Virus record (IMG/VR): IMGVR_UViG_2541047875_000007
Location: 1-42,110 of that record
DNA: 42,110 nucleotides
Direction: 5' to 3' (one strand)
From: a virus
Lineage: Duplodnaviria > Heunggongvirae > Uroviricota > Caudoviricetes
Translations under genes and position numbers: made by a program
Shown here: positions 1 through 6,519 of the stretch, piece by piece
Layout: each line of letters opens with the position of its first letter
How positions within the stretch are numbered: position 1 is the stretch's first letter
Notes under the pieces: model-generated
Databases searched by the model: none
What the model was told of the DNA's origin: nothing
The model's input: the letters and a program-made list of their open reading frames with translations, nothing else

Positions 1-1158
1 ATGCTCACCGTTAAGCAGATTGAAGCAGCAAAGCCGAAAGAAAAACCATACCGCCTACTCGATGGTAATGGCCTGTACCTTTATGTCCCTGTGTCAGGGA
101 AAAAGGTATGGCAGCTTCGCTACAAGATTGACGGTAAGGAGAAAATCCTGACCGTAGGAAAATATCCGCTTATGACTTTGCAGGAGGCAAGGGATAAAGC
201 ATGGACTGCGAGGAAAGACATCTCGGTTGGCATCGATCCGGTAAAAGCGAAAAAGGCTTCGTCTAACAACAATTCCTTTAGTGCGATTTACAAGGAATGG
301 TACGAGCACAAGAAGCAAGTCTGGTCAGTAGGCTATGCAACTGAACTTGCCAAAATGTTTGATGACGACATTTTACCCATCATCGGCGGTCTTGAGATTC
401 AGGATATTGAGCCGATGCAACTGCTGGAAGTAATCCGCAGATTTGAAGATCGCGGTGCAATGGAGCGAGCCAACAAAGCCCGCAGAAGATGCGGCGAGGT
501 TTTTCGTTACGCTATTGTCACCGGAAGGGCTAAATATAACCCGGCACCTGACCTTGCAGACGCCATGAAAGGATACCGCAAGAAGAACTTCCCGTTTCTT
601 CCAGCAGACCAGATCCCTGCATTCAACAAAGCACTGGCAACATTTTCAGGAAGCATCGTATCGCTCATTGCGACCAAAGTTTTACGCTACACAGCCCTAA
701 GAACGAAAGAGCTTCGTTCCATGCAATGGAAGAACGTCGATTTTGAAAACAGGATTATCACCATCGACGCCAGTGTGATGAAGGGGCGAAAAATTCATGT
801 GGTTCCTATGTCAGACCAGGTGATTGAACTTCTCACTACGCTAAGCTCAATCACTAAACCAGTGTCAGAGTTTGTTTTTGCCGGGCGCAACGATAAGAAG
901 AAGCCAATCTGCGAGAACGCGGTATTGCTTGTGATCAAACAAATTGGCTATGAAGGGCTGGAAAGCGGTCACGGATTCAGGCATGAATTCAGCACGATTA
1001 TGAACGAGCACGAATGGCCTGCTGATGCTATTGAAGTGCAACTGGCACATGCCAACGGCGGATCTGTGCGCGGTATTTACAACCATGCGCAATATCTCGA
1101 TAAGCGCAGGGAGATGATGCAGTGGTGGGCGGACTGGATTGATGAGAAGGTGGAGTGA
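1..1158 (+). CDS. int: Tyrosine integrase of the tRNA-associated P4/CP4-57-like family; ATG at window position 1
   Basis: 385-aa ORF; N-terminus MLTVKQIEAAKPKEKPYRLLDGNGLYLYV typical of the P4-type integrase arm-binding domain; C-terminal catalytic region with R...HxxR...Y pattern. Resembles the argW-associated prophage integrase (intS-like) from memory. Confidence 0.9.
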   Translation: MLTVKQIEAAKPKEKPYRLLDGNGLYLYVPVSGKKVWQLRYKIDGKEKILTVGKYPLMTLQEARDKAWTARKDISVGIDPVKAKKASSNNNSFSAIYKEWYEHKKQVWSVGYATELAKMFDDDILPIIGGLEIQDIEPMQLLEVIRRFEDRGAMERANKARRRCGEVFRYAIVTGRAKYNPAPDLADAMKGYRKKNFPFLPADQIPAFNKALATFSGSIVSLIATKVLRYTALRTKELRSMQWKNVDFENRIITIDASVMKGRKIHVVPMSDQVIELLTTLSSITKPVSEFVFAGRNDKKKPICENAVLLVIKQIGYEGLESGHGFRHEFSTIMNEHEWPADAIEVQLAHANGGSVRGIYNHAQYLDKRREMMQWWADWIDEKVE

Positions 1159-1355: not shown

Positions 1356-3839
1356 CTACATTGCCATTAATATAAACATAGCCAATTCGTCATAACGAAT
1401 TCCGTAGCGTCCACCTGCTTTTTTTACAAGAATCATATTTCCTGTTTTATATTGAGAATAAATTTTCTCACCTGTATCAGGATCTGTGCTCTCTTCAGTT
1501 ATCACCTCTTCATCCCATACGTCTGGCCATTCATCGTAACACCAAAAAGCATATTGCTCAGGATTTAAACCACGCTTTCTAAGAATATCTCCTACGGTTT
1601 GAGCGCCAACTCCAAAATGATACCTTGATAACTCCAATCCTTTAAAATTAATCGACTCATTAAACCTGAACTTGCATATAATTCCCTTTATTTCCAGCGC
1701 AGCATCACGCTCTGCCTGAGTAATGTCATATATTGTTTTAAGTGTTTCATCTGATGTGCTTATAGTCCCGGATGCAGAATAAATCTGAGCCCATCTAAAT
1801 GATGGTGCACCAAGAGATTTGCTGTTATCAATAATTGGTGAAAAATTACCTTTAATGGCAATATTTCCAGAGTCGCCGAATATATTAATAACTGTAGAGT
1901 CATCACCATGGTTTTTTACGCTTAAGTTTCTTGATGAAATATTTATATCTTTGTTATATCCACTAACATTAATCCATCTTTTACCATCAATGTGATACCC
2001 GTAAATATTTCCGTTTGATTGTTCGTCAGGTGACTCTCTAAGAACAATAGCATCTACTCCAGACGACCATTGTATTTTTGTATCTGTAGGCCTCCAGTTC
2101 TTTATAATGAACGAACCATCAGTAAACTCCGTTTTTATTTGTCTATTGTCTACAAATGCGTCTCTTGGTTTAAACTCACTTGTGTTAACGCTGCTCTGAA
2201 GATCAGAAGCAAAAAATCTAAGATTTCCTGTATAACCCTGAGTCTCGGTCAGGTTATACGCAATCATAATTCCATTTTCAAACTCAGATGATGTTATTTT
2301 AACATCACGGCAATCACCAAAAATGCAATTTCCTTTATCAAATGTTGTTTGAGCTTTGAATTTATCAAACCTTAAATTACGAACAGGGAAACCATCAACC
2401 TCTAATGCAAAGGATGCAGGAAGGCCAAAGTATTCTGATGGCTTACCTGATGTATGATCAAGAGTAGTGGCTACTGTATTCTCAAAAACAGTCCCGCTAA
2501 AATTATTACCAATTGACGGAAACCTGATTACACTTATTGTACCTTGTATTTCAGGAGAAATACCAGATAGTGTGATGTTAGTTCCATCAAATGATGCATC
2601 TGAATACGTATATACTGATTCACTGCCAGCAATTTTAAACTGTTTAACTGAAGTTATTCTCATCGACTTTTTATGTTTAAATGTCACTGAGCTTTCAGTA
2701 TTACTTACAAGATCAATCTGAGGGCTATTCCTTATCGCGATTCCTGACTGGACATAAACGTTATTAAAGTGCGTTTTTTCAGGATTTCCCTTCATTGAAA
2801 GGCTCCCGTCATTTTCTGTCAGTAGTAGTCCTTTTACCCTCCAATAGCCGACAATCTGTACGTTATCAATAACTGAATCACAGCTATCGTATACATGCAA
2901 CCCTATATCCCAGTTATCACCCAATGAATAAGAATCAGGGTTATTGTATCCTTCAATACCATTTTTACTTACCATTATTCTCAGATTGCGTAACTGTGAT
3001 GCCCTGTTGATACTAACAGCTACGCTCATGGCTTTTGGTGTAGCAGGAGTAACACCTACAGAATCTTCATTCGTAAACTCAGTGAACTTACAAGATATCC
3101 CTTCAACAATTTTAACCGGTCTTTCATTAGAGATGTTAAAAAAATATTTGTTTTTTTCTCCATCACCAGTAAATACAAGATGGGTTCCTTTACTCCAACT
3201 TTTTAATAATCTTTCAGGCGCTGGTCTATATGTATCCCAATAATCAATGCCAGATCCAACCAGTGAACACCCCTCAGGAATGTTAATATTCTTCTTGATG
3301 ATGCATATTCCTTCCGGAATTGTTATAACCGACCTTCCAGAGTTTAAAGCTTTAATAAAAGCATCTGAATCATCTGTTTCCCCATCTATTTTTGCTCCCC
3401 ACCCTCTAACATCTCCACAATCTCTCCATCGTGCCATCTGCAACTCAGGATATTTTTTAGCGCCATCTGGATCTTCTAATTGCTGCCGTAGCTGATCGGG
3501 GTCATACTTCAGCACATTGGGAAAATAAAACTGCTGCGCACCATACGCATCATAAACAGCCATAGAATGGCCTTGCACGGTAACGAATTTGGCAATCTGT
3601 CCGTTATATACCGGATATCCGGCAGCGTTAATGATGATTGGTTGCGAAACAGGAACGTGAGAGCCGTCTTCGTTCTCTACATAAACCTGAATCTGGTTTT
3701 CTGGATTTACCGGGTCAGTGTCAATTTTACCGATATAAATTTTGCCATTGGCATTTGCTTTAAACGAGCGAGCTAAAGTAAATAACTGACTTGGTTGTGA
3801 AACAACTACGTTGTATAATTGTTCTGGCATAATAAACAT
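1356..3839 (-). CDS. Tailspike protein: P22 gp9-type N-terminal head-binding domain, divergent central beta-helix receptor-binding domain, C-terminal intramolecular-chaperone (peptidase S74-like) domain
   Basis: 827-aa ORF. N-terminus [11 protein letters not shown]...[40 protein letters not shown]...[14 protein letters not shown] matches the P22/HK620/Sf6 tailspike head-binding domain. C-terminal region contains TSTSDETLK...[13 protein letters not shown]...[10 protein letters not shown] resembling the S74 chaperone motif. Confidence 0.9.
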
Positions 3840-3852
3840 TCCGGAGAAAATA

Positions 3853-4353
3853 ATGAGTAAGAGACGTCACGAGGTAGTAACTCGGGAGCGCCTTATGGAG
3901 GTTCTCGATTACAATAAAGAAACAGGAATTTTCACTTGGAAAAAGAAATTAAGCGCCAGAGGTGCTGTTGGGAAAGTTGCTGGCACAATTTCTTATGGAT
4001 ATAACGCAATTAATATTGATGGCGTAAGATATTTTGCACATAGACTTGCCTGGCTGTATGTATATGGCGAATGGCCCAAACAAGAGATTGACCACATTGA
4101 TAGAAACAGAAGAAATAACGCAATCTCAAACCTTAGGGATGTCAGCAGAGTCGTAAATGCATTAAATGTCGGACCTCGAAATAGCAATGCTGGAATCAAG
4201 GGGGTAACTTTCTGTCAAGCCAGAAATCAATGGCAAGCTCAGATAAATGTCTCAGGTAAAAACATAACCCTTGGGAGATTCAACACCATTGATGAAGCGG
4301 CTATAGCTTATAAGGCAGCAAACATGGTTGCTGACCATCTGTTGAGTAGGTAA
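3853..4353 (+). CDS. HNH endonuclease with C-terminal AP2-like DNA-binding domain (homing-endonuclease-like)
   Basis: ORF-track ORF 3811-4353 trimmed to ATG 3853 preceded by GGAG. Contains [13 protein letters not shown]...[18 protein letters not shown] (HNH) and GVTF...QWQAQI...[16 protein letters not shown] (AP2-like). Confidence 0.7.
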
Positions 4354-4420
4354 TGTCTGTCATTTAATTTGCTCCAGATACAAGGAATCGCCGCAGCATG
4401 GCTACGGTGAATTTTGGGCA

Positions 4421-4445
4421 TAAAAAAACCCAGCCGAAGCTGGGT
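4421..4445 (-). terminator. Intrinsic terminator downstream of ant (minus strand)
   Basis: Stem ACCCAGC/GCTGGGT with loop CGAA; followed on the minus strand by TTTTTTTAT. Confidence 0.55.
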
Positions 4446-4463
4446 CGTTGCGTTGGTTATCTG

Positions 4464-5366
4464 TCAGTAGTTATGTACTGAAGGAGGTAATTCTTTATTC
4501 TTAAGTCTCATCCATGCGGAAAGATTCGTTGGTCCGTCTGGCTCATTGATATCAACATCTCGTGTGTGATTGATTAAAACGTCTCTCGCCATTCCGATAA
4601 CATACGAGAACTCATGACCGTAGTCGTAGCATCTGCCTGAATAGTTCGATTGAATTTGTTTTAGCGCCGGATACAGTTCGCGGAATAATGCCTGTGAGCG
4701 GTTGGCATAATCCCATAACCATACAAGGCTGTTTGCTTCTTTTGCAGAAAGCTCGTTGGTTTTCTTCTCTTGTTTTCCGATGAACTCGCCTTCAAGCACT
4801 ACCCTGTGGATGTACTCTACTGCTTGCGGTATCTGAGATGAATCAAGCTCTTCAATACTTTCCACGTTGAAACGCTGATGAATCATTGCATAAGCTTCTG
4901 GGTACATTAGATGCTTTTTGCTGACTAGCATATTTACAGCATCACGAAGCGGAGTCCTGTCATCAACAGATGTTTTCTTACGTGCATTTTCTGCCTTTCC
5001 CTTCGTCCAGTAGTCATGCAGCACAGTAAAGCATTCTTCCTGGTACTGAATCAGTTTATCGCGAATGTCAGCACGAACTTTCTCAGGGTTGATGCTGAAC
5101 AGCCATCCATTTAACTTCTTCAAAGGAAGGCAGAGTAGCTTACGAAGCTTACCATCAGCGGCAACCATGTTCATATGAACACAGTTGAATTTGCTAATCT
5201 GCTTCATGAGTTTTGTTTGCTGCGTTGACCAGCTCATTCCAAGGTTTTCAACGATTGGCTTCATCGCAACATATGCAACTCCGGCAGTCATGGCGGTGAT
5301 AATCTGCTGACCATTGAAAGGTACGTAAGAGGTGTTCACTGCTTCTAAAATTGCTATACTATTCAT
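4464..5366 (-). CDS. ant: Antirepressor Ant (P22 immI)
   Basis: ORF-track 322-aa ORF begins at a TTG; the first ATG (5366, [10 protein letters not shown]...) gives 300 aa. Lies immediately downstream of arc as in P22 immI. Confidence 0.85.
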
Positions 5367-5434
5367 GTTGGTTTTTCTCCACGAATTTACTGACAACAGA
5401 AGCCCTGACTGTTCCCGCAGTTGGGGCTTCAACT

Positions 5435-5596
5435 TTACGCGCCAATACGCCCTTCCTTCTTAAAGCTGTCCATTACTCTCTGATAAATCTCAGAGTTAAC
5501 AGACCGACCATTCTCTTCCGCCACCTTGCGTACCAAATCCAATACTTCTTTAGGCCACCGCAAATTGAACTGCGGCATTTTGCTCATTCCTTTCAT
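5435..5596 (-). CDS. arc: Arc repressor
   Basis: 53-aa product [53 protein letters not shown], near-identical to P22 Arc from memory; GAGGTGA before the ATG. Confidence 0.9.
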
Positions 5597-5610
5597 GTTC
5601 ACCTCACAAT

Positions 5611-5660
5611 ATAGGTCCACGGTGGACCTATTGAGAATATAGTAGAGTGCTTCTATCATG
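5611..5660. promoter_or_regulatory. immI operator region: Mnt operator palindrome (5611-5631) and Arc operator (5640-5660) between the divergent arc/ant and mnt promoters
   Basis: ATAGGTCCACGGTGGACCTAT perfect palindrome; TAGTAGAGTGCTTCTATCAT with inverted TAGA half-sites; both match remembered P22 Omnt and Oarc. Confidence 0.7.
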
Positions 5661-5686: not shown

Positions 5687-5941
5687 ATGGCTAGAGATGA
5701 TCCGCACTTTAACTTCCGCATGCCTTTGGAAGTAAGAGAAAAATTAAAATACAGAGCAGAGTCAAATGGTAGATCAATGAACTCAGAATTGTTGCAAATC
5801 GTCCAAGATGCTCTATCGAGACCATCTCCTGTAAAAGGTTATCGCAATGAAGCTGAACGATTAGCCGAGATGCAGGCTGAACAGTTCAAGTCTGTGGTAT
5901 TTGAGACACTTAAAAACATGTATGGCAAGGATGCAAAATGA
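5687..5941 (+). CDS. mnt: Mnt repressor (maintenance of lysogeny)
   Basis: 84-aa product MARDDPHFNFRMPLEVREKLKYRAESNGRSMNSELLQIVQDAL, Arc/MetJ-like ribbon-helix-helix N-terminus as in P22 Mnt; GGAG 7 nt upstream. Confidence 0.9.
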   Translation: MARDDPHFNFRMPLEVREKLKYRAESNGRSMNSELLQIVQDALSRPSPVKGYRNEAERLAEMQAEQFKSVVFETLKNMYGKDAK

Positions 5942-6519
5942 TCGATTACAACCCAGCAAAAAAAGAAATCATCGCAGCTAAAAAGTGCCTAGAGCAGATG
6001 AAATCATCTACAAACCATGATGATTTTGAAATGCACTGGCGAGAATGTCTTGGGCATATAGAAAAGTCTTTCAGTAAGTTGCTCTGTGCAACAAAGCCGG
6101 TTAGTGGAAAATTTAGCAGCCACTTCAACCAAAAGTTCATGCTTAGAAAAACAGACAAAACACTTGCTTACCTTCACCAAGCAAGAAATGCTGATCATCA
6201 TTCCACTATGGAAATCTCAAAACTTGAACCTCCTTATACTACTCTTGGGGCATTTCCTGGAGCAAGAAGCCATTATATTAAAGAGTTAATCATTGATTCA
6301 ACAGGGAAAATAGCAAAATACGAAGGCGACCCTATGATAGTTGAGTTTCATCCAGCAACAACTATGCCTATAACCGTAAGAAACCAAGGCAAAGATTATC
6401 CACCTCCAACAGAACATCTTGGCGAAAAGCTTGTTGATATACATCCATCTGTTCTTGCCCATCTCGGTATACAATTTTATGAAAAATGGATAGATGAGTC
6501 GTGTGCAACGTTTAGATAG
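5938..6519 (+). CDS. Hypothetical protein (193 aa), translationally coupled to mnt
   Basis: ATG overlaps the mnt stop (ATGA); AAGGA 6 nt upstream; no family recognised. Confidence 0.7.
   Translation: MIDYNPAKKEIIAAKKCLEQMKSSTNHDDFEMHWRECLGHIEKSFSKLLCATKPVSGKFSSHFNQKFMLRKTDKTLAYLHQARNADHHSTMEISKLEPPYTTLGAFPGARSHYIKELIIDSTGKIAKYEGDPMIVEFHPATTMPITVRNQGKDYPPPTEHLGEKLVDIHPSVLAHLGIQFYEKWIDESCATFR

Follow-up and report, generated by a model that had tools for sequence, protein, structure and literature searches.

The IMG/VR record IMGVR_UViG_2541047875_000007 is a P22-like (Lederbergvirus) genome whose closest relatives are the phages Kapi1, phiv205-1 and CUS-3; all 42,110 nucleotides of it were analyzed, and this whole stretch is referred to here as the window. 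Between the tailspike gene and the antirepressor gene ant of the window lies a gene for an HNH-AP2 endonuclease, which is oriented antisense to the tailspike gene. In this work we conclude that it is probably a free-standing homing endonuclease gene (HEG) of a lineage specialised on the first tailspike codons of P22-like phages. The locus includes the following features:

3853..4353, plus strand: HNH-AP2 endonuclease gene, an uninterrupted open reading frame (ORF) of 166 amino acids with an ATG start and a TAA stop at 4351-4353
~3783..4348, no strand assigned: cassette, DNA found only in alleles that bear the HEG and made up of the recoded tailspike 5' end, a divergent spacer and the body of the HNH ORF, delimited by BLAST against six HEG-less phages
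3783..3830, minus strand: replacement tailspike start, an ATG at 3830 and the recoded codons 1-16 (MPEQLYN...), cassette-linked
4349..4363, minus strand: remnant of the ancestral tailspike start, ATG ACA GAC ATT ACC (MTDIT), from alignment to HEG-less phages
4372..4375, minus strand: ancestral tailspike Shine-Dalgarno (SD) sequence GGAG, now orphaned, from the same alignment
4301..4363, minus strand: 20-codon junk ORF that runs from the old start antisense into the HNH gene, from translation
3843..3846, plus strand: GGAG, SD of the HNH gene, 6 nt 5' of its ATG, read from the sequence
3814..3819, plus strand: TATAAT, candidate -10 of the HNH gene, within the recoded tailspike codons, read from the sequence
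1356..3830, minus strand: tailspike gene, with a P22-type head-binding domain (Pfam Head_binding, 2e-64) followed by a receptor-binding part specific to the window
4417..4446, minus strand: ant (tANT) intrinsic terminator, stem 4446-4427 and T-run to ~4417, from a terminator scan
4464..5366, minus strand: antirepressor gene ant, right neighbour of the HNH gene (Pfam P22_AR_N and P22_AR_C)

The homology of the six HEG-less phages to the window ends at position 3782 on the left and restarts at 4350 on the right. On the minus strand, the empty site of the HEG-less relatives reads GGAGCAAATTAA ATG ACA GAC ATT ACA GCC AAT... (MTDITAN...), and the MTDIT remnant is continuous with the tailspike ORF in CUS-3, 611R6, N7, epsilon34, phiv205-1 and P22. 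In the window the ancestral SD and ATG ACA GAC ATT AC(C) are found at 4375-4349 on the minus strand, beyond the stop of the HNH gene, a feature that had been missed in the first-pass annotation of this DNA. The insertion separates codon 5 from codon 6 of the ancestral tailspike gene; occupied alleles hold a cassette of ~570 bp at this point, and the HNH gene takes its stop codon (TAA) from the stub, where it lies opposite part of the old codons ATT-AC as their reverse complement. Since the remnant stands on the far side and contains the HNH stop, the element lies in the tailspike coding sequence and not in a spacer. The first-pass annotation had described a free-standing homing-endonuclease insert between the ant terminator and the tailspike start; the nature of the insert agrees with its domains and with its absence in most relatives, whereas its location had to be revised to codons 5/6 of the tailspike ORF.

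The survival of the old SD, ATG and five codons beyond the HNH stop also means that the present tailspike start is part of the insert. The ORF now in use for the tailspike begins again 520 bp beyond the old start, with its own ATG at 3830. The 16 recoded codons share 23 of 48 nt with CUS-3, versus 344 of 389 (88%) in the next 389 nt, and the recoded 23-mer ATGCCAGAACAATTATACAACGT is accompanied by an adjacent HNH gene in each of the 20 IMG/VR contigs where it occurs; this linkage indicates that the new start is part of the cassette rather than a tailspike allele in its own right. On the tailspike strand, the order is therefore the HNH gene in antisense, a short spacer, and a new ATG whose first codons, also new, lead back into the tailspike frame. 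The junctions show how the essential tailspike gene is kept intact with neither intron nor intein, leaving the five old codons as a dead stub. The ORF that begins at the old start has 5 native codons followed by 15 junk codons, and in another variant a stop follows directly after the 5 codons. The antisense arrangement, as suggested earlier, may affect tailspike expression. Late transcripts meet the old strong SD and ATG with the junk ORF, cross ~470 nt antisense to the HNH gene, and then reach a start with a weaker SD; the SD-like element of the replacement start is GGA in the window, and AGAG in the other two variants described below.

It had been noted earlier that only 13 bp separate the ATG codons of the HNH gene (3853) and of the tailspike gene (3839). 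This is correct for the longest tailspike ORF, but the extra in-frame ATG at 3839 is not conserved in diverged relatives, whereas the ATG at 3830 is kept in them and is the one used by the annotators of Kapi1. From this pattern the tailspike start is likely to be 3830 rather than 3839, and the gap to the HNH ATG is then 22 bp.

Comparison of the ant-tailspike interval across P22-like relatives revealed the HNH gene in Kapi1 and its absence in most of the others. In a megablast search against phage records, Kapi1 (MT813197) was the one phage with the same gene in the same place (Kapi1_066, 'HNH endonuclease'); it is 99.6% identical to the window from 3490 to 4600, and no close copy other than that of Kapi1 was found in sequenced phage isolates. 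CUS-3, 611R6, phiv205-1, N7, EC.P3, HZ41, epsilon34 and P22 match the window on both flanks (88-99% identity in the relatives without the HNH gene) and carry no HNH gene, and HK620 also lacks the HEG. The record of P22 bears out the earlier statement that this phage has no gene in the interval. The gene is thus not conserved in all relatives, shows no structural role, and its ORF is undisrupted. A junction scan of a genome collection holding one genome per species gave no match. Kapi1 is a viable temperate phage whose infectious particles use O-antigen (PMC8787464), and given that it forms such particles with an identical cassette, the rebuilt tailspike gene functions.

The same site is occupied by more than one HEG. 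In 5426 complete E. coli genomes, the flanks were matched in ~1150, and the window-type HEG together with its flanks was found in 15; a second gene, named here the NRG857C type after E. coli NRG 857C, occupies the site in another 15, and a third gene, the ET479/L014 type, in 7. The proteins of the three types are 35-42% identical: that of NRG 857C (169 amino acids) is 42% identical to that of the window over 92 residues, and the ET479/L014-type protein (162 amino acids) is 35-42% identical to the other two. In IMG/VR, two flank lineages could be distinguished, and the site is occupied in 11 of 124 loci of the first (the one with the right flank of the window, among the matches listed) and in 15 of 116 loci of the second. 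Besides the 11 loci with one of the three HEGs, the matches listed for the first lineage include 99 empty MTDITAN alleles, 9 HK620-type MTDSINAN alleles, 2 MSNITAN alleles and 2 loci with an unrelated insert of ~270 bp. In the second lineage, 100 of the 116 loci carry the empty site GGAGCAATGAA ATG TCA GAT ATC ACC/GCA AAT (MSDITAN; here and below a slash marks the junction), and the occupied loci hold the window-type HEG in 9 cases and the NRG857C type in 6. The same HEG is linked to at least five different receptor-binding domains and to several different right-hand neighbours.

The three HNH-AP2 genes share one junction, ...TAG(G/A)/TAATGTCTGTCAT, and each brings a different replacement N-terminus: MPEQLYN in the window type, MTDSINAN in the NRG857C type and MSNIVPN in the ET479/L014 type. 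The NRG857C-type gene ends in ...GGTAGG/TAATGTCTGTCAT and its replacement start reads AGAGAAATTAAA ATG ACA GAT TCA ATA AAT/GCC AAT (MTDSIN/ANVVV), and this cassette is a clean insertion between codons 5 and 6; the ET479/L014-type gene ends in ...TTTAG(G/A)/TAATGTCTGTCAT. In the occupied loci of the second flank lineage the junction is at the same nucleotide, with an MSDIT remnant instead of MTDIT, and the HNH stop is TGA and not TAA. Codon 5 is ACC in the occupied MTDIT alleles, as in the MSDIT lineage, while it is ACA or ACT in the empty MTDIT alleles, and this pattern confines the changeover between recipient and donor DNA to the 3 nt ATT^A^C^C. At the opposite end of the NRG857C-type cassette, a donor-type GCC is followed within 12 nt by recipient-type polymorphisms. 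Position-fixed, sharp junctions and short co-conversion tracts of this kind are what would be expected of break repair at the insertion site. A crossover at this point cannot be the work of ordinary homologous exchange, since past ~30 nt the right flanks of the two lineages are not related to each other. The motif TAGG was considered as a conserved end of the three cassettes and was discarded, given that in the MSDIT lineage its GG corresponds to codon 5 (ACC) of the recipient; only TA is then common to the three HEG ends.

Some HEG-less alleles show other rearrangements at or near the same place. The tailspike of HK620 (AF335538; locus L039, 1560-1700, compared with L008:2655-2830) begins with MTDSINAN, which is the replacement start of the NRG857C type, located behind the original GGAGC SD. 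This N-terminus could be a scar left behind when a cassette was lost, or the cassette could have taken its start from it. The NRG857C-type cassette is flanked by direct repeats of 7-16 bp, AAATTAA(A)ATGACAGA, and deletion between these repeats could have produced the HK620 allele. In the two IMG/VR loci L060 and L115, an AT-rich non-coding insert of ~270 bp, located ~330 bp left of the conserved flank CATTTAATTTGCTCC, follows the old-start stub (ATGACAGATATTATAAAT...), and the tailspike restarts with MPDITPNVVIG; a tblastn search of this insert for HNH remnants yielded nothing convincing, and it may represent a cassette that has decayed or an insert of some other kind in the same hotspot. In P22-pbi (L005, ~1380-1530, from the gene 9 start to the ant terminator) the spacer has ~110 extra bp; this extra P22 DNA is flanked by the direct repeat AGC(A/G)TGGCTACGGTGAATTTT and is absent in CUS-3, epsilon34, N7 and the window.

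The product of the window gene has the characteristics of an HNH nuclease. The Pfam HNH_3 domain matches residues 60-103 with 59.7 bits versus a cutoff of 24.8, and PHROG 99 ('HNH endonuclease') is matched at E 7e-63. Among 55 homologues the motif DHxDxNxxNNxxxNLR is kept, with D80, N89, N93 and N105 invariant and H81 nearly invariant, and the catalytic motif can be aligned to its counterpart in I-HmuI. An AlphaFold2 model built on the alignment of these homologues reached a predicted local distance difference test (pLDDT) score of 89; in this model strands are predicted at residues 118-143 and a helix at 146-165. The C-terminal domain superimposes on the AP2 domain of TEM1 (7ET4 and 7ET5) with a root-mean-square deviation (rmsd) of 1.3-1.4 Å over 41-43 residues, 38-40% identity and a probability of 1.00, and the target-normalised TM-score against AtERF1 (1GCC) is 0.65. 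The top PDB match in Foldseek was I-HmuI (1U3E), with a probability of 1.00, 96 aligned columns and an rmsd of 3.5 Å; the E value of only 4e-3 and the TM-score of 0.39 reflect that one domain aligns. This likeness covers residues ~20-110, which correspond to the beta-hairpin DNA-binding region and the beta-beta-alpha-metal HNH motif. A sequence search of the PDB returned weak matches only (I-HmuI, E 0.07; WRI1, E 0.011).

The window-type HEG is open in 21 of 21 full-length copies, and 14 of its 18 polymorphic sites are synonymous and 4 non-synonymous (p = 6e-7, for an expected synonymous fraction of 0.215); from this excess we conclude that the gene is under purifying selection. The NRG857C-type HEG is open in 8 of 8 copies, with 12 synonymous versus 3 non-synonymous sites (p = 8e-7), and the 29 full copies of both types are all intact. 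A chance ORF at 3853-4353 is ruled out by the domains, the conservation and the ratio of synonymous to non-synonymous changes, and the earlier call of an HNH-AP2 gene in antisense between the ant terminator and the tailspike gene is upheld, with HNH_3 above its cutoff and AP2 recognised by fold. Kapi1_066 is not among the genes reported as undetected by stranded RNA-seq in cultures of the Kapi1 lysogen (PMC12922286), which is weak support for its expression. One copy of the window-type gene, in E. coli 30COLEC (L010, 3296-3750), is cut at ~codon 151 and joined to a gene with an ASCH domain, a tyrosine recombinase and a DUF6387 gene; the prophage of this strain is truncated there by a different element or a deletion.

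Searching 5.8 billion proteins extended the clade, at 67-84% identity, to Salmonella, Citrobacter, Serratia, Mixta and metagenomes. Five members from Salmonella, Serratia, Mixta and metagenome contigs were looked up, and all five are in a P22-like prophage, divergent from a Head_binding tailspike gene and 14-34 bp from it. In four of the five, the old SD and ATG with a stub of 4-7 codons follow directly after the HNH stop. In Serratia sp. (GCA_052616605.1; L272, 3501-4100), a 78%-identical HEG lies beside a tailspike starting with MPEQSYN; here an intrinsic terminator comes directly after the HEG and the old-start stub is missing, hence the stub is not universal in the clade. A relative at ~50% identity is found in a different phage context.

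Taken with the junctions, these data are best explained by homing, and the following mechanism can be proposed. The enzyme would be made from its own weak sigma-70-type promoter (TATAAT at 3814-3819) and the GGAG SD. The AP2 domain together with the N-terminal beta region would recognise the conserved sequence around ATGACAGACATTACAGCCAAT in HEG-less phages, and the HNH site would nick or cut at or next to ATT^A^C^, the boundary of codons 5 and 6. The break would be repaired from an HEG-bearing genome, for instance when a superinfecting phage meets a prophage or when two prophages are co-induced, and repair would copy the cassette in, co-converting a short stretch of variable length at the tailspike 5' end. 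Immunity of the HEG-bearing alleles would follow from the split site and from the recoding of the new first codons.

Several observations weigh against this explanation. A consensus promoter scan of 3400-4700 on both strands found no complete sigma-70 site, so that TATAAT is a candidate only; the same TTGTATAAT lies 28 nt upstream of the ATG in the NRG857C-type gene. The Pfam score of the AP2 domain (27.6 bits, E 3.6e-6, residues 114-156) is below the curated cutoff of 33.3, although the predicted fold described above confirms the domain. The target, the cut site and the immunity are deduced from sequence comparison alone. By analogy with T4, where the characterised free-standing enzymes usually cut at a distance of hundreds of bp from the gene that encodes them (PMC2988022), a putative cut at the insertion site would be atypical for free-standing phage HEGs. 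Between the two recipient lineages, the right flanks have diverged too far for ordinary strand invasion, and annealing at microhomology has to be assumed. Finally, a stable association with the tailspike gene across genera is also expected of a domesticated, vertically inherited gene.

This last possibility, in which the gene is a vertically inherited part of one tailspike module that no longer homes and works as an AP2-type regulator of the tailspike gene or ant, or as an exclusion nuclease of the lysogen, is unlikely but deserves to be weighed first. The purifying selection, the constant position beside the tailspike gene across Enterobacterales at 67-84% protein identity, and the RNA-seq report on Kapi1_066 would all fit with it. 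It is contradicted by nearly identical copies that have two unrelated right flanks and adjoin no fewer than five receptor-binding domains, by three distant HEGs at one junction, and by the 85-90% of otherwise near-identical loci that have no HEG. Moreover, exclusion by cutting the empty site uses the same biochemistry as homing and is therefore not a true alternative to it. We consider even less probable that the gene is a passive passenger, captured once by illegitimate recombination and spread by linkage to the often-recombining head-binding segment of the tailspike gene, with no part played by the nuclease. The region between the tailspike start and the ant terminator is indeed a known mosaic boundary, annotated as a 'boundary sequence' in CUS-3, and the receptor-binding domains beside the HEG differ between copies; nevertheless, this reading does not explain why three distinct HEGs use one nucleotide position, why two flank lineages, each with a remnant of its own type, have the same junction, or why the synonymous excess is strong. 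That the insert is an intron or intein, removed at the RNA or protein level with the old MTDIT start still in use, is scarcely credible. Exact removal of the NRG857C-type cassette would restore MTDIT/ANVVV, but the HNH ORF is antisense to the tailspike gene and fills nearly the whole insert (501 of ~566 inserted bases, which leaves ~65 non-ORF bases), the ORF from the old start ends after 20 codons, every variant has its own in-frame ATG, and a search of the whole window against Rfam on both strands found no intron of any kind and only the sar RNA; an intron- or intein-borne HEG is excluded as a class by the absent intron, the antisense HEG and the few non-ORF bases.

The neighbourhood of the free-standing HEG is that of a P22-like phage. 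The terminator that had been placed earlier between the HNH gene and ant was recovered as the minus-strand stem given above, and homologous terminators are annotated in epsilon34, P22 and HK620. The ant gene is 90-98% identical at the DNA level to those of P22 and epsilon34. A full-length sar antisense RNA at 5367-5434 on the plus strand (Rfam RF00262, 91 bits) overlaps the start of ant and is adjoined by arc (~5435-5659, minus strand) and mnt (5687-5941, plus strand); with these three in place, the immI region is P22-like and apparently complete. Directly downstream of mnt, and overlapping its stop, an ORF of 193 amino acids extends over 5938-6519 on the plus strand. On the other side, the integrase gene (1-1158, plus strand) converges on the 3' end of the tailspike gene at 1356, with 197 bp between them, and neither gtrABC nor any other O-antigen-modification gene is found between these two genes of the window. 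The gene order of the window is that of the vegetative, attP-joined permutation and not that of a prophage. The body of the tailspike after Head_binding is pectate-lyase-like according to Pfam, and the Kapi1 tailspike shares with it only the N-terminal ~115 codons. The C-terminus (1356-1900, minus strand; residues ~650-760) gives weak, sub-threshold Pfam matches to the endosialidase domain End_tail_spike and to Peptidase_S74, which suggests a tailspike with a self-cleaving C-terminal intramolecular chaperone domain.

HNH-AP2 proteins have been recognised as a family of HEGs (Magnani et al. 2004, as cited in PMC10055350), and free-standing HEGs next to essential genes of phages are well known (PMC2988022, PMC10055350). 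The work on the 'IPA-HNH' genes of the vibriophage ICP1 (Barth et al. 2023, PMC10055350) describes the family and its surroundings, which are mostly genes for polymerase, ribonucleotide reductase and terminase. As in these cases, the window gene encodes an N-terminal HNH_3 nuclease with a C-terminal AP2 domain and is a free-standing phage gene that adjoins an essential gene; in contrast, the window protein matches canonical HNH_3 and the ICP1 proteins do not, and that work (PMC10055350) does not describe a P22-like tailspike site, a cassette-borne start or several lineages per junction. I-HmuI, an intron-encoded HNH nicking endonuclease of Bacillus phage SPO1, acts near its insertion site, as the window enzyme is supposed to do; its gene is carried by a self-splicing group I intron and its C-terminal DNA-binding modules are of the helix-turn-helix type, whereas the window gene has no intron and encodes an AP2 domain, and the identity is ~25%.

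The 'intronless homing' of the T4 seg and mob genes (PMC2988022, PMC2790892) likewise concerns stand-alone HEGs between or beside essential phage genes. They spread by double-strand-break repair with co-conversion of flanking markers, and the resistance of the carrier is due to differences in the target sequence (PMC2988022, PMC2790892). The T4 genes are intergenic and their enzymes cut hundreds to thousands of bp away, while the window element lies within a coding sequence, its junctions point to a break at the insertion site, and its setting is that of temperate phages and prophages. The nearest precedent for the replacement start is the insertion of mobE, by which nrdA of Aeromonas phage Aeh1 is split into two genes ('genes-in-pieces'; Friedrich et al. 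2007, as cited in PMC2988022), where a free-standing HNH-family HEG is also found in an essential coding region; judging from that citation, the downstream part of the gene gets a new translation start in both cases, with no intron or intein, but in Aeh1 both halves are translated and assemble, whereas in the window the upstream 5-codon stub is discarded and the cassette replaces codons. The window does not belong to the 'genes-in-pieces' class, as its upstream fragment consists of the 5 native and 15 junk codons. Full-text literature searches on Kapi1, on P22-like tailspikes and on Lederbergvirus combined with HNH or homing endonuclease found no description of this element. The epsilon34 paper describes an unrelated HNH fusion in the early-left operon.

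The element differs from known HEGs in its in-ORF position without an intron or intein, its replacement start, the junction evidence for the insertion site, and the three lineages at one temperate-phage site. To our knowledge, HEGs are thought to survive within genes only inside introns or inteins, and otherwise between genes. The locus described here represents a third arrangement, in which the element is inside an essential ORF and the damage is repaired by a new gene start. A broader proposal, towards which we are evenly disposed at best and slightly inclined to doubt, is that there is a guild of HNH-AP2 cassettes that invade the coding sequence of one essential phage gene without an intron or intein, by means of a portable ribosome binding site, start codon and recoded first codons for that gene; that at least three lineages compete for one tailspike nucleotide position across Enterobacterales; and that homing, because the cassette lies 22 bp from the tailspike ORF, drags along the donor's tailspike 5' end, and sometimes the receptor-binding domain, so as to act as a gene drive for host-range alleles, with the HK620-type N-terminus as a scar or a source.

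These enzymes might find use as new site-specific nickases or nucleases with an AP2 reader, and Kapi1 with its host E. coli MP1 is a ready experimental system. For the P22-like phages, our results indicate that the conserved tailspike 5' end is a contested landing site of several nuclease lineages in E. coli, Salmonella, Serratia and Mixta. This 5' end adjoins the spacer annotated as mosaic boundary in CUS-3, and if the enzymes cut there, they would introduce recombination breaks where host-range modules are exchanged, which would give a mechanistic reason for the mosaic boundary.

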